Below are positions 9,953-38,825 of a stretch of 64,000 bases of DNA, in pieces. Every line of letters starts with the position of its first letter. Within the stretch, counting starts at the first letter, position 1. The translations under genes and the position numbers were made by a program. The notes under the pieces are model-generated. The model saw only the letters and a list, made by a program, of their open reading frames with translations, was not told the origin of the DNA and made no database searches. The stretch is from TPA_inf: Saccharomyces (taxonomy: Eukaryota), in the NCBI GenBank assembly GCA_000146045.2, contig BK006934.2, forward strand, positions 448,001 to 512,000, written 5' to 3'.

Positions 9953-11298
9953 AAGATCAGCATCCTTTCAATTGCTGAAAGGTTCACCTAAAGTACCGCT
10001 CATATTCCAAAAGGATTCTTCACTACATAGAAAGGGCAGCCAATTGTGTGTTTTTCAGAAAGGGTTTTAAAAAAACAGGAGGGTGCTTGTTCTTGTTGTT
10101 CCCTACCATCGATGGATTTCGAAAAACTATTTATAGGACCATCTGATTTTCACCTCCATCATTGTATCATATACTAACAAGCATATCCAAATTTGTAATT
10201 CTATCATGAAATTTCCAGAGAAAGAAACGCAAGGGAACTGAGAAATCAAACCTAAAAACGGTTCTTGGCATTGTTATGAAAAATGAATAAACCAGGGGGG
10301 CAAAACAATCGAGAACCCCAATCAAAACCATGTGAGATACCCACTTCGAAAGTTACTGATATTATAACTCTTGTGTCCTCTCTTCTAATACCTTACTTTC
10401 ACCTTTCTCACGTAGTTAAAGTTGCAACAACACATTTTGTCCTCATCCAATTTCTTCTATAGAATATCCGTTTGCCTCCAGGAGTGAAGAAATGATAGCA
10501 GTAACACTGTGAAAGCGAGACTAAGAGAAACGACTTAAAGCTCGAAGACTTCTTGAGGATACGTTTATGTTTCTGTGGCTTCTTCTTCGCGGCGCGGTTC
10601 TCGCGTATAGGAATGTTCTAAGACAAGAAGGCATGAAGTTATGTTAACAGATTCTATATCTACTCGCTACGCATATATAAACGGATTCATCATTGAAACA
10701 ATGGTACTTGTGGTAATGTGTACGACGATTTCAACCCGAATAAAAGCAAAAGTGCAAAAAAAAAACAAGAAGCGCTTAGCACTGTTGAATCATTTAGAAC
10801 ACTACTAATGCTGGTAATACACTCAAGAATGAAGAGTGGCTTACTCCATTGTTGATGCAAAAGTTGTAAATTTCACGAATTATTTAATGCGTTCCTTGCA
10901 ACCTTCTATTTTGATGAACATCAGGAATTGAAACAAAAAAAAGGCTTCAATCTCAACGGAAAACGGGAAGAAAACTACACTCGATTATACTATATATGCC
11001 AAGAAGATTCTCCGACAGATTGTCTACTTAATTTCACATAATATATCTTGTTTTACTAGCTTATTATATAGCGTCGCATTTAATTCATGGCGCCATCACC
11101 CGCAGGGAATATAACGACAAGGCCGATACCACGGGAAAAATAGGGCGAGCGGAAATACTAAAAGAAAAATAAGCTTCCGAAATAAAACACCGACAATGAA
11201 GTTCTTGGCAAGGTTCGGTTATTTCCTCTACGTAACAAGAGGTATAATATCCGAGCGTACAGGGCTAAAAAATTAATACAAAGGTGTAAAAGAAGGAC

Positions 11299-13530
11299 AT
11301 GGATGGTCCCAATTTTGCACATCAAGGCGGGAGATCACAACGTACTACTGAATTGTATTCGTGCGCACGATGCAGAAAATTAAAGAAGAAGTGTGGTAAA
11401 CAAATACCGACATGTGCAAACTGCGATAAAAATGGGGCACACTGTTCATATCCAGGTAGAGCCCCAAGACGTACCAAGAAGGAGTTAGCGGATGCTATGC
11501 TACGAGGGGAATATGTTCCAGTGAAAAGGAACAAGAAGGTAGGAAAAAGCCCATTGAGCACTAAGAGCATGCCAAACTCTTCTAGTCCGCTATCCGCAAA
11601 TGGCGCTATAACTCCCGGGTTTTCGCCTTACGAAAACGATGATGCACATAAGATGAAACAGCTAAAACCGTCAGATCCAATAAATCTTGTCATGGGGGCA
11701 AGTCCAAATTCTAGCGAAGGTGTCTCATCGCTAATTTCGGTGCTAACATCGCTGAATGATAATTCTAATCCTTCTTCGCACTTATCCTCTAATGAAAATT
11801 CCATGATTCCTTCCCGATCATTGCCAGCTTCCGTGCAGCAAAGTTCGACAACTTCATCATTCGGAGGATATAACACGCCTTCACCACTAATTAGCAGTCA
11901 TGTGCCTGCGAACGCCCAAGCCGTACCGCTACAAAACAACAATCGCAATACTAGCAACGGGGATAACGGCAGTAATGTTAACCACGATAATAACAATGGC
12001 AGTACCAACACACCGCAATTGAGTCTTACCCCATATGCAAACAATTCAGCCCCCAATGGGAAATTCGATTCTGTGCCGGTTGATGCATCCTCGATCGAAT
12101 TTGAAACTATGTCCTGTTGCTTTAAAGGTGGTAGAACAACATCGTGGGTCAGAGAGGATGGCTCGTTCAAGTCAATTGATAGATCCTTACTGGACAGGTT
12201 CATTGCCGCATACTTCAAACACAATCACCGTCTATTTCCCATGATTGATAAAATAGCATTCCTAAATGACGCCGCGACAATTACTGATTTCGAAAGGTTA
12301 TATGACAACAAAAACTACCCTGACAGCTTTGTTTTCAAAGTATACATGATCATGGCTATTGGTTGTACAACTTTACAGCGTGCTGGTATGGTTTCTCAGG
12401 ACGAAGAGTGTCTGAGTGAACATTTGGCTTTTTTGGCCATGAAAAAATTTCGTAGTGTTATAATTTTACAAGATATCGAAACTGTACGATGCCTATTGTT
12501 GTTGGGTATTTATTCGTTTTTTGAGCCAAAGGGCTCCTCGTCATGGACAATTAGTGGTATCATCATGCGATTGACCATAGGATTAGGTTTAAATAGAGAG
12601 TTAACTGCCAAAAAACTCAAGAGCATGTCTGCTTTAGAAGCAGAGGCAAGATATAGAGTGTTTTGGAGTGCTTACTGCTTTGAAAGGCTAGTATGCACCT
12701 CGTTGGGCCGTATATCCGGGATCGACGACGAAGACATCACTGTGCCACTACCGAGGGCGTTGTATGTGGATGAAAGAGACGATTTAGAGATGACCAAGTT
12801 GATGATATCATTAAGGAAAATGGGCGGTCGCATTTATAAACAAGTCCACTCTGTAAGTGCAGGGCGACAAAAGTTAACCATCGAACAAAAGCAGGAAATC
12901 ATAAGTGGATTACGCAAGGAGCTAGACGAAATTTATTCTCGAGAATCAGAAAGAAGGAAACTGAAAAAATCTCAAATGGATCAGGTGGAGAGGGAGAACA
13001 ATTCTACTACAAATGTAATATCCTTCCATAGTTCTGAGATTTGGCTAGCAATGAGATACTCCCAGTTGCAAATCTTACTATACAGACCATCTGCATTGAT
13101 GCCAAAACCGCCCATTGACTCACTATCCACTCTAGGAGAGTTTTGCTTGCAAGCCTGGAAACATACTTATACACTGTACAAGAAGCGGTTATTACCCTTG
13201 AACTGGATAACCCTTTTCAGAACATTAACCATTTGTAACACTATCTTATACTGTCTTTGCCAGTGGAGCATCGACCTCATTGAAAGTAAAATCGAAATTC
13301 AACAGTGTGTGGAAATACTAAGACATTTCGGTGAAAGATGGATTTTTGCTATGAGATGCGCGGATGTTTTCCAAAACATTAGCAACACAATTCTCGATAT
13401 TAGTTTAAGCCATGGTAAAGTTCCTAATATGGACCAATTAACAAGAGAGTTATTTGGCGCCAGCGATTCATATCAAGACATATTAGACGAAAACAATGTT
13501 GACGTCTCTTGGGTTGATAAACTTGTATGA
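11299..13530 (+). CDS. STB5: Zn(II)2Cys6 zinc-cluster transcription factor, 743 aa (regulator of oxidative stress, the pentose phosphate pathway and multidrug resistance)
   Basis: The N-terminal CARCRKLKKKCGKQIPTCANCDKNGAHCSY is a Zn2Cys6 cluster. A fungal transcription-factor middle homology region follows. The 743-aa length and position match YHR178W. Confidence 0.9.
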   Translation: MDGPNFAHQGGRSQRTTELYSCARCRKLKKKCGKQIPTCANCDKNGAHCSYPGRAPRRTKKELADAMLRGEYVPVKRNKKVGKSPLSTKSMPNSSSPLSANGAITPGFSPYENDDAHKMKQLKPSDPINLVMGASPNSSEGVSSLISVLTSLNDNSNPSSHLSSNENSMIPSRSLPASVQQSSTTSSFGGYNTPSPLISSHVPANAQAVPLQNNNRNTSNGDNGSNVNHDNNNGSTNTPQLSLTPYANNSAPNGKFDSVPVDASSIEFETMSCCFKGGRTTSWVREDGSFKSIDRSLLDRFIAAYFKHNHRLFPMIDKIAFLNDAATITDFERLYDNKNYPDSFVFKVYMIMAIGCTTLQRAGMVSQDEECLSEHLAFLAMKKFRSVIILQDIETVRCLLLLGIYSFFEPKGSSSWTISGIIMRLTIGLGLNRELTAKKLKSMSALEAEARYRVFWSAYCFERLVCTSLGRISGIDDEDITVPLPRALYVDERDDLEMTKLMISLRKMGGRIYKQVHSVSAGRQKLTIEQKQEIISGLRKELDEIYSRESERRKLKKSQMDQVERENNSTTNVISFHSSEIWLAMRYSQLQILLYRPSALMPKPPIDSLSTLGEFCLQAWKHTYTLYKKRLLPLNWITLFRTLTICNTILYCLCQWSIDLIESKIEIQQCVEILRHFGERWIFAMRCADVFQNISNTILDISLSHGKVPNMDQLTRELFGASDSYQDILDENNVDVSWVDKLV

Positions 13531-18989: not shown

Positions 18990-19061
18990 GCCTCCTTAGC
19001 TTAGTGGTAGAGCGTTGCACTTGTAATGCAAAGGTCGCTAGTTCAATTCTGGCAGGTGGCA
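18990..19061 (+). tRNA. tT(UGU)H: tRNA-Thr, anticodon UGU, intronless, 72 nt, CCA not encoded
   Basis: The cloverleaf folds as GCCTCCT / TA / GCTT-AGTGGTA-GAGC / TTGCA-CTTGTAA-TGCAA / AGGTC / GCTAG-TTCAATT-CTGGC / AGGTGGC-A. A box TAGCTTAGTGG and B box GTTCAATTC are present. One T-T mismatch occurs in the acceptor stem as I folded it. Confidence 0.88.
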
Positions 19062-20218: not shown

Positions 20219-22576
20219 ATGTCTGTTAAAGAGCATAACGAAGAAGATATTATTGGTGATGAATTACAGAATTCGAGGCAACTCTCCATTGATTGCGACT
20301 CAGTTAAAATTTCACTAAGGAACACATATTGGACCAAAGACTATACAACAGGTATCAAATTATTCATAAAACATATGAAGAGAGAAAATGATTTGCTGAT
20401 TAAAGACATCAAATTTTACAATGATTTTGTCAACAAATTTTGGAAACCAACATTGAACAATTTACAAAAAATGGAAGCAACCAATTCAATGAATAGCAGG
20501 CTGCTGGAAGTGATGAGCAAACAGTTTAATATAATATCAACAGAGCAAGTTGAAAGAGATTGTAAAATTCCATTGCAAGAACTAAGAGATCTTAATGAGA
20601 GCTTCCTTCGTGAGGCAGAAAACGATTTGTCATCTCGTTATTCAGCTTACATTAAGGATTTAGTCGCAGCTAAAGAGGCACTAATTGGATGTGAGAAAAG
20701 AGTTCAGTCTATATATAAATTGAAAAAAGCCAATACGCCAGTGGAAAATTCTTCCTCTGTTTTTGATAATGGAAAGGATAGTGCACCGTTAACCAGGTTG
20801 AACTTCGTATGCGAGTTTCCTTACACTTTAGACGAGAGGTTAAAATTTGAGGATTGCGACCAATTTATGTCATTTTTGCAAACCTTGAAGGGAAAAGTCA
20901 TCCTGGAGAAAAGTGTCTTTTCCGTTCCAGGATTGTCAAATCAAAGTTTCCAAGGCAGGTCATTGATCAAAGAATTGAAAAAACTTGAACCCAGACTAAA
21001 CCTGTCCTTATTTAATATCGATAGGATAGGTAACGAATTCATCCAACTGGGTATAATACAAGAATATTCCCTGAGTTTTTACTCTAGCAAAGTTTCTCAG
21101 TTTGACCAGGAAAAATACTATTACTGGAACAGTGAAGTCCTTGCTACGCAAGAGAGTAATGGTAATGCTGGAAACAGAAAAAAAAAATCGTATGGTGAGT
21201 TAACACACTCCGACAATGAACACGAAGAAAAGTCCAACGTTTCATCTATCAAAACATCTATATCCGATTGGATCCGCAAAGTTAGTCAACATGATAATGA
21301 TGATTGCGATGCAGCGGGAAGTACAGATATGAATAAAAATGAGTGGAAGAGTTTAAAACAGCAACTTGAATCATCACAAGATATTTTTTTCTCCAAGTGT
21401 TGCCAGTTGGAATATTCTAAAGTGCAGTTGGAAAAAACCATTTATGATTATTGTAAAAATTACTCTAAAATGGAGGACGGAATCAAACGAGCTCTAGAAT
21501 CATCAAACATGATGTTTCAACAAAAATGTGAAAAATTTACTGACTCACCTGTGTGTTCTCTACAAGAAGCACAACTGCCACAGGAAACTGCCAATGCGGA
21601 TGTAAGAGGGTTTTTCCTCAGGGATAATGGCATACCCTTTCGCAGGTGGAATATCCTAGAAGCGAGTGATCCAGTCGACGCTTGCAAAGAAATCTCCATA
21701 AAAAGCGAAAAGTTTTTCTGTGGTAGTGAAATAAATAATGAACTGGCTGCTCTTGATACGTTAGGGGCAATAAAGATTATACTGCGGCAGATTGAAAAGG
21801 AACCAAATGCTAATAAAGTCATACAAAGTTGGCACAGGGATATTGATTTTGTAAGGGTTTCTAATTTGAAAAGAGACTTATTGGGGGAATTCAAAGGATC
21901 GAAAACTACCGAAAATACAAACTCTATAATCACTGCTCATTTTTTTGAAAACTCGCACAGCTATGTCACTAATGATCTCGTCGGACTGATAAAATTATGG
22001 CTGTTAGAGCTACCCGACAGCCTAATACCTTCAAACCACTACGATGACTTAATTAAGGCCGAAAAATCGCTAACATCCCTATGTGAACAGTTTCCGACGA
22101 GCTCCTTAAGGTTTCTACAAGAACTAGCAAACCATTTTCAATTGATCAATAGCAAATACTCACTTCCGCCGCAAACAATACAAGATTTGTTTAGAGACAA
22201 CAGTGACATAGACATACCATTGGCCCATCACTTCGTAAGAAGAACAGGCTTACAGAACCCTATCGACATCAAAATCTTGTCACCAACATTATCTACATTT
22301 TTCATCAACGAAAGAACTGTAGAAACTTTGCAAACGTTGATCGCAAACAGGATCACGACGGCAACTACTGCGACACTCACTGAACCGCCGACGATAATTA
22401 TAAAGGATACAACGGCACCTATACACTCTACCCCTAAGCCACCGCCAAACGACAAGGATGGCCATTTCATACCTCGGCCATTCAAGACTAGTTCTACTCC
22501 GACAACCCCAGAGAGACCTAAACGTAAGAGTGGTTTATTCCTTCCCATCAACGTCAACGATGTCCCTTCTACATAA
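20219..22576 (+). CDS. YHR182W: RhoGAP-domain protein with an N-terminal F-BAR-like region, 785 aa
   Basis: The track ORF 20162..22576 starts at TTG. The ATG at 20219 (MSVKEHNEED...) gives 785 aa. The RhoGAP region lies around ...LIKLWLLELPDSLIP.... The C-terminus is S/T/P-rich. Confidence 0.8.
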   Translation: MSVKEHNEEDIIGDELQNSRQLSIDCDSVKISLRNTYWTKDYTTGIKLFIKHMKRENDLLIKDIKFYNDFVNKFWKPTLNNLQKMEATNSMNSRLLEVMSKQFNIISTEQVERDCKIPLQELRDLNESFLREAENDLSSRYSAYIKDLVAAKEALIGCEKRVQSIYKLKKANTPVENSSSVFDNGKDSAPLTRLNFVCEFPYTLDERLKFEDCDQFMSFLQTLKGKVILEKSVFSVPGLSNQSFQGRSLIKELKKLEPRLNLSLFNIDRIGNEFIQLGIIQEYSLSFYSSKVSQFDQEKYYYWNSEVLATQESNGNAGNRKKKSYGELTHSDNEHEEKSNVSSIKTSISDWIRKVSQHDNDDCDAAGSTDMNKNEWKSLKQQLESSQDIFFSKCCQLEYSKVQLEKTIYDYCKNYSKMEDGIKRALESSNMMFQQKCEKFTDSPVCSLQEAQLPQETANADVRGFFLRDNGIPFRRWNILEASDPVDACKEISIKSEKFFCGSEINNELAALDTLGAIKIILRQIEKEPNANKVIQSWHRDIDFVRVSNLKRDLLGEFKGSKTTENTNSIITAHFFENSHSYVTNDLVGLIKLWLLELPDSLIPSNHYDDLIKAEKSLTSLCEQFPTSSLRFLQELANHFQLINSKYSLPPQTIQDLFRDNSDIDIPLAHHFVRRTGLQNPIDIKILSPTLSTFFINERTVETLQTLIANRITTATTATLTEPPTIIIKDTTAPIHSTPKPPPNDKDGHFIPRPFKTSSTPTTPERPKRKSGLFLPINVNDVPST

Positions 22577-22676
22577 CTCCATGCATGCTACATAGTAACT
22601 ACGTAAATCACCTGCTACCTCTCTGTTCTTTCGTCCCGCCTCGAGGTTGTGCTGCTTTTGTACCTATTGTGGCTGT

Positions 22677-22705
22677 CGGTGTTACATTACGGTGCCTCGG
22701 TGTTA
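22677..22705 (+). promoter_or_regulatory. Two direct copies of CGGTGTTA (22677..22684 and 22698..22705), fitting the Stb5 consensus CGGNSNTA, inside a GC-rich island in the GND1 promoter
   Basis: The motifs are read directly in the sequence. The Stb5 assignment comes from my memory of the published consensus and of GND1 as a pentose-phosphate-pathway target of Stb5. Confidence 0.4.
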
Positions 22706-22959
22706 CGCGGTGCTTCGTCCTGGTGGTCCACGCGGCCTTGCGCTTTGGCCTTGGTGGGCTTCGAGGCTGTATTATATAAATGGGCCTGATGTTCGTTAAA
22801 AGCTGCAGTATTGTTCCTGAGCTTGTTTCTTTTTCAAAGGTTTCCTTTTTTCTTAGTGGGGTCCTTTCTTACATAATAAAGTAAATAGCCTGATACATAT
22901 AAACCTGTATTGTTGCCATTACAGAAAAAAGCCACTTTCTATACAAAAACTACAATAAA

Positions 22960-24429
22960 ATGTCTGCTGATTTCGGTTTGATTGGTTTGGCCGTCATGGG
23001 TCAAAATTTGATCTTGAACGCTGCTGACCACGGTTTCACTGTTTGTGCTTACAACAGAACTCAATCCAAGGTCGACCATTTCTTGGCCAATGAAGCTAAG
23101 GGCAAATCTATCATCGGTGCTACTTCCATTGAAGATTTCATCTCCAAATTGAAGAGACCTAGAAAGGTCATGCTTTTGGTTAAAGCTGGTGCTCCAGTTG
23201 ACGCTTTGATCAACCAAATCGTCCCACTTTTGGAAAAGGGTGATATTATCATCGATGGTGGTAACTCTCACTTCCCAGATTCTAATAGACGTTACGAAGA
23301 ATTGAAGAAGAAGGGTATTCTTTTCGTTGGTTCTGGTGTCTCCGGTGGTGAGGAAGGTGCCCGTTACGGTCCATCTTTGATGCCAGGTGGTTCTGAAGAA
23401 GCTTGGCCACATATTAAGAACATCTTCCAATCCATCTCTGCTAAATCCGACGGTGAACCATGTTGCGAATGGGTTGGCCCAGCCGGTGCTGGTCACTACG
23501 TCAAGATGGTTCACAACGGTATTGAATACGGTGATATGCAATTGATTTGTGAAGCTTATGACATCATGAAGAGATTGGGTGGGTTTACCGATAAGGAAAT
23601 CAGTGACGTTTTTGCCAAATGGAACAATGGTGTCTTGGATTCCTTCTTGGTCGAAATTACCAGAGATATTTTGAAATTCGACGACGTCGACGGTAAGCCA
23701 TTAGTTGAAAAAATCATGGATACTGCTGGTCAAAAGGGTACTGGTAAGTGGACTGCCATCAACGCCTTGGATTTGGGTATGCCAGTTACTTTGATTGGTG
23801 AAGCTGTCTTTGCCCGTTGTCTATCTGCTTTGAAGAACGAGAGAATTAGAGCCTCCAAGGTCTTACCAGGCCCAGAAGTTCCAAAAGACGCCGTCAAGGA
23901 CAGAGAACAATTTGTCGATGATTTGGAACAAGCTTTGTATGCTTCCAAGATTATTTCTTACGCTCAAGGTTTCATGTTGATCCGTGAAGCTGCTGCTACT
24001 TATGGCTGGAAACTAAACAACCCTGCCATCGCTTTGATGTGGAGAGGTGGTTGTATCATTAGATCTGTTTTCTTGGGTCAAATCACAAAGGCCTACAGAG
24101 AAGAACCAGATTTGGAAAACTTGTTGTTCAACAAGTTCTTCGCTGATGCCGTCACCAAGGCTCAATCTGGTTGGAGAAAGTCAATTGCGTTGGCTACCAC
24201 CTACGGTATCCCAACACCAGCCTTTTCCACCGCTTTGTCTTTCTACGATGGGTACAGATCTGAAAGATTGCCAGCCAACTTACTACAAGCTCAACGTGAC
24301 TACTTTGGTGCTCACACTTTCAGAGTGTTGCCAGAATGTGCTTCTGACAACTTGCCAGTAGACAAGGATATCCATATCAACTGGACTGGCCACGGTGGTA
24401 ATGTTTCTTCCTCTACATACCAAGCTTAA
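22960..24429 (+). CDS. GND1: 6-phosphogluconate dehydrogenase (decarboxylating), major isoform, 489 aa
   Basis: The 489-aa translation has the GLAVMGQNL Rossmann N-terminus and the 6PGD signature. Strong codon bias is present. The position matches YHR183W. Confidence 0.97.
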
Positions 24430-27693: not shown

Positions 27694-27705
27694 TCGATGT
27701 TAAAA

Positions 27706-27778
27706 TGTTCCAACCGAGGATCGAACTCGGGACCTTTGCCGTGTGAAGGCAACGTGATAGCCGCTACACTATTGGAAC
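27706..27778 (-). tRNA. tV(CAC)H: tRNA-Val, anticodon CAC, intronless, 73 nt
   Basis: The reverse complement reads GTTCCAATAGTGTAGCGGCTATCACGTTGCCTTCACACGGCAAAGGTCCCGAGTTCGATCCTCGGTTGGAACA. The acceptor stem is perfect 7 bp, the anticodon loop is TTCACAC, and the B box GGTTCGATCC is present. Confidence 0.9.
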
Positions 27779-27998
27779 AGACTTTTAATATTCTGAACTT
27801 TCTGCTTTACTAAACATCGTATTATTATACGAACATGAAACAATAATTAACAACAAATTCCAGAACTTGCGACCAGCTGTTAAATTCACAATCAGACCAA
27901 TTTTTTACTCGACTTTTATTATATAATAGATTATATATATATATATATATATATCTCTTTTGCAGCTAAATGAAAGAAAAAAAAAGAAATGGCACATA

Positions 27999-30900
27999 TC
28001 AAAAATAATCAATTCTCTCGTCTTCACACTTGTAGATATTTACAATAGAATCGTGAGAATTGGTGGCCGCAATCATCATTCTATGAGGATGGAAAGCCAT
28101 CGAAGATAAAAATGCATCAGAAGTGGAAGAGTAGGACAGTGACTTTGGGATTCCCGTAGCGGCTAATGTACTTGTTACGCCATTATTATGTGAGTTTTTA
28201 AAAGAATTCAAAAGATCTCCAGATGTCGTCCATATCTTTATTTGTTTAGTCCCTGTCGCAATTATCGGAGCATGCTCATGAACCTGCATGCACGTCATTG
28301 TCGTTGGTTTTTGTTGCGAACCGTACTGAGAAGTTACGTTTTGATCAACAAACGATTCTACCGGATCTTCGGACCTTATATCCCATAACTCTACAACACC
28401 ATTGGTAGCTCCACTGACCAATTCTCTGTAACCACCTCTTTGTAAATGAACATTGTTAATCCAAACTCCCTGCTTATCATTTCCAGCTCTCCAGCGACGT
28501 ATCATGGAATCTCTTGGATCGAGACGGCGATCATATACTCTCAGGGAGCCATCTGCAAACCCTGCTACGAAGATATTACCTGCTAGCTGATCAGCCGTCA
28601 AGGATGTAATTAAAGATGATGTTTTTGCAGGAATGTCCACTTCAACCGTTTCTGTATGCGCATCCCAGACACGGATAACCTTAACATCACCAGTTGTTAA
28701 CAATGATCCTCTTATTTGTAACCATTCGGTTAGTAAACCTGTGGATCTAGGTGTCAATAACATATCGGTCAAGCCTCTCCAGGCGGATACAATTTTAAAG
28801 GTGTCGACATCTTGGTAGTCTCTGTATATTTTGATAACACCGTCTGAAGAACCTGTCAATAAAAGGGCGGAGTCATCCTCGTTAATGAGTTTCAGGTCAG
28901 TAACTTTTGTGCCAAAAGGAGTACCATTGGAGAATTTGGACAAAGTCTTTCCTTTCTCCCAATCAAAAACTGTAATGGTACTTCTATCATCTGCAGTAAT
29001 CAGCTGATCTTCAAACTGGGCAAACTTCATCAGTTTTGGTTGACTTTTGTTATTTAAACTAATCAATTTTTTGGACCAATTCCCATAAATCGATAATTTT
29101 TTCTCCCCCTGTGTTTCCTGGATAATAGTTTCATTTCTGTTACGTCTCCACAATCTAGCATTATACTCAACACTGCCAGGTTCATCCGCCTCTTGCTTTT
29201 TCATTTGTGGTTCTTGAAAATATTCACGTGAATAGTCTAAAAAGGAACTATTTAATGGCAATTGTAAGGGTTCTGTATGCTTCCGGAATCTTGGAGTCTC
29301 AGCTGTAGGATAAATATTATTATTGCCATTCAATAAATATAAGCCCGAGGGACCCTTTTTTGAGGTATGCGATTTCATCGAAGTATTTGATGATTGAGTA
29401 TCAGAGTCACTATTGGATTCGCTAAAACCAAGACTCTGGAAAAGTTTAGCTAAAGATGTCCGCATTGGATGAGATATCTTTGGGTCATGCTGTTGTTGCT
29501 CTTTTTTGAATGCATTATTATCTACCCTCTCATTTGGTGAGAATGATCGTAATGAACTTTTTACAAATTGAACCTGCGAAGAATTAAATCCAAATTTACC
29601 AGTTTGGTGAGCTTTCGAGCTTCTTTTCAACAAAAATTTTTCCATAACTGCAAATGGTCCACCAAGTTCCTTATGGGCGCTTAATTCAAGCAAAATATAA
29701 TCTATAACCTGCTTGGATAATTCCTTGTTCTCTAAAAAGGGATCTTCGGCTAGAATCAAGAGAGATTTCCAAACAGTGTAGAAAATGGAACCCTGACTAA
29801 CTGAATACTTATCGGAAGTGTTTCGAGTATTGATATCACTTTTCTCTAAAAGTTTTATTTCTTCCAACAAATCATTGAATACAACTACAATAAAAAAGTT
29901 AGAGTAACGACTCACAATATGCGAAAAATATACGACTAGTTCCTTACGGACTAATGATGAACCATCATTGATTAAAGGTAAGATTGAGATCAAGTTGCCA
30001 ATTTCCTGTCTTTTTAACTTCCTCAAATCAATAACTTCTAGTTGATTTTGCATAACTTGACAATGACGAATCTGCTTTTCAATTTTCATCTGCTGCTGCT
30101 CAAGATGCTGCTGCTGTTGCTGGGACTGTTGTTGTTGTAGATGGGATTGATTTTGGAGATGCTGTAATTGCGAATGTAATTGCTGATACTGTTCTTCAAA
30201 TTCTTGTTGCAATCTCAAAATTACCTCTGCATCTTGAAATCCAGATATGAAATGCTTCAATGCAAATATAGAAGCTGTTCTAACTTCAGGTACAGGGTCC
30301 TTCAAAGATTTTAGTAATATTTCAACAGCACCAGTATTCATACATACAAACCTGTTTAAGGGGTTATCAGCAAACAATAAACCTAATAAAATAACACACC
30401 ACTGTCTTAGTAGGGGTATCTCAGAATTATCAATATAAAAGCACAACTTGTTGACCAGTTCCAAACTAAAACAATTTTTTTGCCCCAGAGGAAAGTTTCG
30501 AACGAATGATGCCAAAACAAAGACAGCCATAGCTTTTTGTTCATCGGTGGTATCATTAGAATGATAAAATGGAAGATTATTGTGGCCCAAGTTGGATGTT
30601 CTATTTCCTTGCTGGCGTTCATAATATCTTGAAGATGGACCATTTATATTCTGCGATGCAGTCATTGTCAACGGGTTCCCACTATTTATCATGGCTGAGC
30701 CATTTGTAGCTGACATGCCATTAACACCCCAATCAGGTACTAACACTGTAACAAAATACATATAACCCTTTTCTTTGATTAATTCACTTTGCGTGTTTTT
30801 GTAATCTATTGACATGATACGGGCCCAAATAAAAACTAGGATGGGCTTCAACTCAGGTGCTGGACTTTGTAGCAGCTTCAAAACGTAGGGGAAGATACCT

Positions 30901-38229: not shown

Positions 38230-38631
38230 TTACATAATAGGTAGAGGCCTATCCTTAAAGATAACCTTATATTTCATTACATCAACTAATTCGACCTTAT
38301 TATCTTTCGAATTGAAATGCATTATACCCATCGGTACGTCTAGCTTTGTCACCTTCCCCAGTAAACGCTGTTTCTTGCCGACAAACAATGTGGCCCTCTC
38401 TCCGTCAATCTGTAACGACCCAAATCGTATTAAAGTTTCGCCGTCCTGTTCACTGAACCTTCCCTCATTTGGAGAATCTCTCCTCGCCAGCGACGCAAAG
38501 TCCTTAGGCAACTCTAGTTCACCTTGAATCTCCAGCATCATCATCCCAAGCGGTGTTATCACCGTGGTCTGCTTTTCTCTTGACTGTGTCAACTTCTGCC
38601 ATTGACTAGCATCTATATCTACACTAGGCAT
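38230..38631 (-). CDS. CTF8: Subunit of the Ctf18 RFC-like complex (sister chromatid cohesion), 133 aa
   Basis: The track ORF (171 aa) is trimmed to the ATG giving MPSVDIDASQWQKL... and 133 aa. The position matches YHR191C. Confidence 0.78.
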   Translation of the reverse strand: MPSVDIDASQWQKLTQSREKQTTVITPLGMMMLEIQGELELPKDFASLARRDSPNEGRFSEQDGETLIRFGSLQIDGERATLFVGKKQRLLGKVTKLDVPMGIMHFNSKDNKVELVDVMKYKVIFKDRPLPIM

Positions 38632-38825
38632 TCTTTTCAGCTGTTTATTGGGCTGAATGATAGTGATAATTCTTTTTTCTATCACTCCTTTGGCTATATT
38701 AGTGGTTAGCTTACTAAAAAAGATTAAAGGAAAAATGAAATTCAAGATGCTAACGTTGACATGTATATTTTAAGAAAACAAAAATCATACAAAGAGGAGA
38801 TCGGATATAAAAGAATAACATAAAT

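Follow-up and report, generated by a model that had tools for sequence, protein, structure and literature searches.

Which bases in front of GND1, the gene for one of the two steps at which the oxidative pentose-phosphate pathway yields NADPH, carry the information for switching it on? We examined this question in a stretch of Saccharomyces cerevisiae DNA 64,000 nucleotides long, referred to below as the window, in which the 383-bp spacer between YHR182W and GND1 (22577..22959; both flanking genes on the + strand) contains a GC-rich, repeat-bearing island. The reading that we favor, at a probability of roughly 0.85, is that positions 22674-22723 constitute the upstream activating element of GND1, in which same-strand CGG half-sites recognized by Stb5 drive a TATA box 75 bp downstream. 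The features on which this reading is built are collected in Table 1.

Protein comparison bore out the identities that an earlier sequence-only reading had given to GND1 and to STB5, which lies in the same window. Gene order around STB5 and GND1 was the same throughout the Saccharomyces loci compared, and the closeness of the two genes is probably incidental. On the minus strand at 11185-11193, 107-115 bp ahead of the STB5 start codon, we observed TCGGTGTTT, one base off the 10-mer repeated at GND1, which could be a hint of autoregulation. Among the proteins in the Stb5 90%-identity cluster, one from S. pastorianus (P0140) is named 'Rac GTPase-activating protein BCR/ABR' and looks mislabelled in its source record. 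As for RNA genes, a tRNA-Thr (18990-19061) was the sole tRNA in the window reported by both ARAGORN and Rfam; ARAGORN also called a tRNA-Val(CAC) on the minus strand at 27705-27779, which was absent from the whole-window Rfam scan at the gathering threshold.

Table 1. Features of the GND1 upstream region and of related genes, in window coordinates
Feature	Position	Strand	Evidence
Core conserved block, four same-strand CGG half-sites	22674..22723	+	45/50 columns invariant in six species
Stb5-type site 1, TCGGTGTTAC	22676..22685 (octamer 22677-22684)	+	fits CGGwstTAta and CGGkGwTA; invariant in six species
Non-consensus half-site CGGTGCCT	22690..22697	+	fits minimal CGGNS alone; invariant in six species, part of 26-bp run
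Stb5-type site 2, TCGGTGTTAC	22697..22706 (octamer 22698-22705)	+	invariant in six species
Non-consensus half-site CGGTGCTT	22708..22715	+	fits minimal CGGNS alone; invariant in six species
TATA box TATATAAA	22773..22780	+	fits TATAWAWR; 187 bp upstream of GND1 ATG; invariant in six species
GC-rich, A-poor island, upstream part of GND1 promoter	22630..22770	.	59.6% GC vs intergenic mean of 36%
XhoI-type palindrome GCCTCGAGGTTGT, upstream copy, Xbp1-like CTCGAG core	22638..22650	.	direct repeat with 22758-70; core 22641-46
Downstream copy GCTTCGAGGCTGT, abutting the TATA box	22758..22770	.	CCTCGAGG in the other five species; TCGAGG invariant
YHR182W, RhoGAP-like, upstream neighbor of GND1	20219..22576	+	stop codon 100 bp before site 1
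GND1, 6-phosphogluconate dehydrogenase, regulated gene	22960..24429	+	100% identity to protein named Gnd1p; 6PGD and NAD_binding_2 domains
STB5, Zn2Cys6 factor, proposed trans-acting regulator	11299..13530	+	identical to Stb5p of S288C; Zn_clus and Fungal_trans domains

A GC-rich island with paired Stb5-type sites

The striking GC-richness claimed for 22600-22770 was confirmed: this stretch is 56.7% GC against 36.0 +/- 5.6% in 171-bp intergenic windows, the highest value among 27 intergenic segments and within the top 0.05% among all windows. The string quoted from it in the sequence-only reading begins gccgcctcgagg; the actual sequence is cccgcctcgagg. The island also contains little A on the + strand (9 in 141 nt), and in six Saccharomyces species its length stays within 136-138 bp and its GC content within 54-62%, with indels flanking it on both sides of the alignment. 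Separately, ACGTAAATCACCTG (22601-22614), located 25-38 bp past the YHR182W stop codon, is mostly invariant in the six species and gives only near-matches to bZIP or forkhead cores.

A repeat finder returned the 10-mer TCGGTGTTAC in two direct copies 21 bp apart from start to start, each containing the octamer CGGTGTTA, in agreement with the direct octamer pair originally noted on the + strand. It also returned a second repeat (D6), CGGTGCCTCG / CGGTGCTTCG, at 22690 and 22708, the latter spanning 22708-17. In total, four CGGTG half-sites fall inside 40 bp, all on the same strand, with neighboring half-sites 8-13 bp apart from start to start and the CGG triplets separated by N10, N5 and N7. Site 1 lies 283 bp and site 2 262 bp ahead of the GND1 start codon; both precede the TATA box, by 96 and 75 bp respectively.

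We compared the octamer with the published Stb5 motifs, namely CGGwstTAta (the Harbison 2004 / MacIsaac 2006 benchmark, tabulated in PMC2174516), CGGkGwTA (obtained by the regression method fREDUCE, PMC2174516) and the minimal form CGGNS given by two papers. It matches all three, so the proposed fit to an Stb5 consensus stands. In the 64-kb window the exact octamer was observed four times vs 1.13 expected; the two occurrences outside the GND1 promoter, at 28835 (minus strand) and 38551 (+ strand), are inside long ORFs. The GND1 pair constituted the only intergenic matches to CGGWSTTA and CGGKGWTA in the window, in a scan of the ~16.7 kb not occupied by ORFs of 100 codons or more. At 38551-38564, CGGTGTTATCACCG consists of two overlapping inverted Stb5-type octamers and is probably coincidental, because it is inside a 171-aa minus-strand ORF (38230..38745). 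Since ~1.5% of local shuffles produced a direct repeat of a perfect 10-mer at a distance of up to 30 bp, the repeat alone is only mildly unusual and not decisive; the case for the GND1 sites is carried by their identity with a known motif and by conservation.

The TATATAAA box downstream of the island was found where the sequence-only reading had placed it. Together with its flank, TTATATAAATGGG (22772-84), it forms the second-longest invariant run of the spacer, and its distance from site 2 is 73-75 bp in all six Saccharomyces species. The stretch from the TATA box to the GND1 ATG also contains the short conserved blocks TTCTTTTTC (22827-22835), TAGCCTGA (22886-22893) and GTATTGTTGCCAT (22907-22919), which probably belong to the start-site region or 5' UTR of GND1.

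Conservation across Saccharomyces

We aligned the spacer with five orthologous spacers from S. arboricola, S. eubayanus, S. uvarum and two further Saccharomyces assemblies, making six species with S. cerevisiae. Orthologs were found by searching with YHR182W, which diverges fast enough for telling species apart. Conservation of the octamers in other Saccharomyces had been set beforehand as a test of the Stb5 assignment, and both octamers were invariant in the six species at the identical 21-bp spacing.

Conservation extends over the whole block, the best 50-column window of the spacer alignment. Outside it, 153/365 columns of the spacer are invariant, and for four-fold degenerate positions within the final 300 codons of YHR182W, our neutral yardstick in the same six species, the count is seven of 52 (13%). 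The longest invariant run of the spacer is the 26-bp CGGTGCCTCGGTGTTACGCGGTGCTT (22690-22715); no invariant run longer than 19 was obtained in 20000 column permutations. The consensus sites, the non-consensus CGGTGCYT half-sites and GTCCTGG were equally conserved. These comparisons show strong purifying selection on all of 22674-22723 across the genus. In two of the Saccharomyces assemblies (L007, positions 551-2912, and L008), the YHR182W ortholog is split into overlapping ORFs of 494 and 304 aa, reflecting either a frameshift or an assembly error.

The motif upstream of GND1 homologs in more distant yeasts

We then scanned the upstream regions of Gnd1 homologs from more distant yeasts for the octamer and for the degenerate form CGGTGYYW. 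Upstream of GND1 in Nakaseomyces bracarensis, the exact octamer occurs three times and CGGTGYYW seven times on the same strand within 170 bp, the latter vs 0.53 expected for the locus. This array is ~1.05-1.2 kb upstream of GND1, with no intervening ORF of note. It lies just past the ERV26 ortholog (array at L011, 294-470) and comprises ~ten same-strand CGG half-sites, seven of which fit CGGTGYYW; the long spacer itself contains many poly-T and GT tracts. YHR182W is absent from this locus and the array is still found upstream of GND1, therefore the element travels with GND1.

One exact octamer was also found upstream of GND-family genes in Naumovozyma dairenensis and one in Kazachstania africana, bringing the post-WGD lineages outside Saccharomyces with an exact octamer to three (~0.03 expected in each). 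In the pre-WGD Kluyveromyces lactis and Lachancea thermotolerans, the region upstream of the GND gene showed no motif, not even CGGNNNTA. The presence of octamers in Nakaseomyces, Naumovozyma and Kazachstania but not in K. lactis or L. thermotolerans indicates that motif and GND1 have long been associated in the post-duplication clade. The two-plus-two layout in its strict form is, among the loci compared, a Saccharomyces feature. S. cerevisiae GND2, also a reported Stb5 target, has only a degenerate CGGGGTTA upstream.

Stb5 as the proposed activator acting through the block

The present analysis established the sites, how they fit the published motif, where they stand with respect to TATA box and ATG, and the selection on the block; Stb5 occupancy of the GND1 promoter and the dependence of GND1 on STB5 have been reported in the literature. 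According to papers that cite the original work (PMC6755256, PMC8151747, PMC5686817), Stb5 binding at GND1 was detected by ChIP-chip (Larochelle 2006) and ChIP-exo (Ouyang 2018), and deletion of STB5 lowered GND1 expression (Ouyang 2018). Reviews and later studies citing the same two papers list ZWF1, SOL3, GND1, GND2, RKI1, TAL1 and TKL1 as genes activated by Stb5, and secondary sources describe increased Stb5 binding at many pentose-phosphate target promoters upon diamide treatment. The activation of GND1 by Stb5 assumed in the sequence-only reading is thus backed, as far as these secondary sources relate it, by gene-level binding and by stb5-dependent expression. Upon STB5 overexpression, GND1 was upregulated under glucose limitation (LFC 1.64) and unchanged in batch glucose (PMC6755256). 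Literature searches for the octamer gave nothing but unrelated primer matches, and those for 'GND1 promoter' matched only an engineering paper.

We propose that Stb5 would be recruited by the pair of consensus TCGGTGTTAC sites 21 bp from each other, with a weaker CGGTGCYT site 10-13 bp after each, and that these particular sites would be the bases contacted by the protein. Spaced by 21 bp, or two helical turns, the strong sites would lie on one face of the helix, and the weak CGGTGCYT sites may add occupancy. Stb5 on the block would then promote transcription from the TATA box that follows after 75 bp, contributing to basal GND1 expression and to induction when NADPH demand rises, as in oxidative or diamide stress. 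Because the spacing of half-sites varies both here and in Nakaseomyces, we infer recognition of half-sites rather than of a rigid dimer site.

A stricter version of this model would treat the block as a composite of fixed geometry, with four same-strand half-sites in the order strong-weak-strong-weak over 50 bp, requiring higher-order Stb5 assembly or a partner. Across the genus, the 50-bp block with its four half-sites contains no indel, and CGGTGYYW covers 4/4 of the GND1 half-sites as well as seven of the ~ten in the Nakaseomyces array. If this version held, CGGTGYYW would be a better descriptor of functional Stb5 arrays than the published motif. We regard it as a tentative extension, with the odds somewhat against it.

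Alternative explanations for the conserved block

The Stb5 match could be partly coincidental, the block being bound mainly by a different factor (zinc-cluster or other) or by Stb5 only in a hetero-complex. Conservation reaches well past the two octamers, into CGGTGCCT, CGCGGTGCTT and GTCCTGG, and another factor may share the block, because the published motif of 8-10 bp leaves the conservation of CGGTGCYT and GTCCTGG unexplained. Stb5 is described in the literature as heterodimerizing with Pdr1, and GND1 is listed there as a Yap1-regulated gene and as a ChIP-exo target of Fkh1/Fkh2. Against these candidates, the block contains no PDRE (TCCGCGGA). By-eye inspection of the block found no canonical Yap1 or forkhead core, the consensus sequences of these factors being TTACTAA and GTAAACA. 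Hap1 sites (CGGN6CGG) need direct CGG repeats exactly 6 bp apart, and those of Gsm1, Mal63 and Znf1 have N9 spacing; a dimer site of the Hap1, Gsm1 or Mal63 type was ruled out by the spacings of the CGG triplets, none of which is N6 or N9. Stb5 occupancy of the short 383-bp GND1 promoter, by contrast, has been published, and we consider it improbable that a different factor or an obligate hetero-complex is the main reader.

The block could also be part of the YHR182W 3' end, as a 3'-UTR or termination element, rather than of the GND1 promoter. It begins just 100 bp past the YHR182W stop codon, and sequences of the TATATA type can act as polyadenylation efficiency elements in yeast. We judge this very unlikely, because the same-strand CGGTGYYW array persists upstream of GND1 in N. 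bracarensis, where YHR182W is missing, and because only the distance to the TATA box is fixed (73-75 bp), the distance to the YHR182W stop varying by ~30 bp through indels. A YHR182W 3'-end element is further disfavored by the lack of an RNA structure signal.

That the island encodes a protein or a structured non-coding RNA is hardly credible: an ATG-to-stop ORF of 64 aa does span it (22585..22779), as the sequence-only reading had pointed out, and in the orthologous spacer of L002 a gene caller predicted a gene of 118 aa on the minus strand, but the ORFs over the block differ in frame (three frames), start and length among the six species, which marks the 64-aa ORF as spurious, as had been supposed, and conservation is uniform over all three would-be codon positions. 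We accordingly rejected a small protein on the differing frames, and a structured RNA on the fold z-score of the island (-0.88 vs shuffles), the absence of compensatory changes (0/35 predicted pairs) and the absence of an Rfam match at the island.

Significance

Activation of GND1 through the Stb5-type half-sites restates regulation that is already known at the gene level, and it is not a discovery, because GND1 is a published Stb5 target; the accepted picture of direct GND1 activation by Stb5 is left unchanged. Mildly new are two hypotheses, the invariant architecture of four half-sites and the generalization of the motif to CGGTGYYW. STB5 and GND1 are frequent metabolic engineering targets, and a 50-bp Stb5-response module with a strict architecture would offer a precise target for promoter engineering and site-directed tests.

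Comparison with known systems

The island is bracketed by a pair of largely conserved CCTCGAGG palindromes, 120 bp from each other, that resemble sites of the repressor Xbp1, given as CTCGAG/A (PMC3814307, citing Mai and Breeden 1997). An Xbp1 site should have this core no more than 800 bp from the ATG, in a gene that xbp1 mutants derepress; at GND1, the upstream core (22641-46) is there. The upstream CCTCGAGG is kept in five of the six species, being lost in L007, and the downstream copy in S. cerevisiae reads TTCGAG, without the CTCGAG core. Neither GND1 nor YHR183W was found in the supplementary tables of Xbp1-repressed genes in PMC3814307. Given the degenerate downstream copy, the loss in L007 and this negative result, a role for Xbp1 is unsupported.

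The asymmetric direct repeats of the Hap1 type (CGGnnnTAnCGGnnnTA) share with GND1 the direct CGG triplets, the 3' TA extension and a Zn2Cys6 reader. Hap1 requires N6, whereas the GND1 triplets are separated by N7, N5 or N10.

The overall layout is that of yeast promoters that have a TATA box and, ~50-150 bp upstream of it, a UAS: in GND1, the block (22674-22723) is followed after 50-75 bp by TATATAAA, and 187 bp further by the ATG, with the spacings of UAS, TATA box and ATG all kept. GND1 differs from this class solely in that its UAS is GC-rich, not AT-rich.

A further comparison is with the Stb5 sites of the pentose-phosphate/NADPH regulon (Larochelle 2006). The GND1 octamer is an exact match, located in the promoter of a gene reported to be bound and activated by Stb5, and it is conserved in relatives, as entries of conserved-site maps should be. 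The GND1 promoter differs in carrying two direct consensus sites spaced by exactly 21 bp that alternate with a pair of invariant CGGTGCYT half-sites, and its 50-bp block is frozen as a whole, beyond what the published single half-site Stb5 motif predicts.
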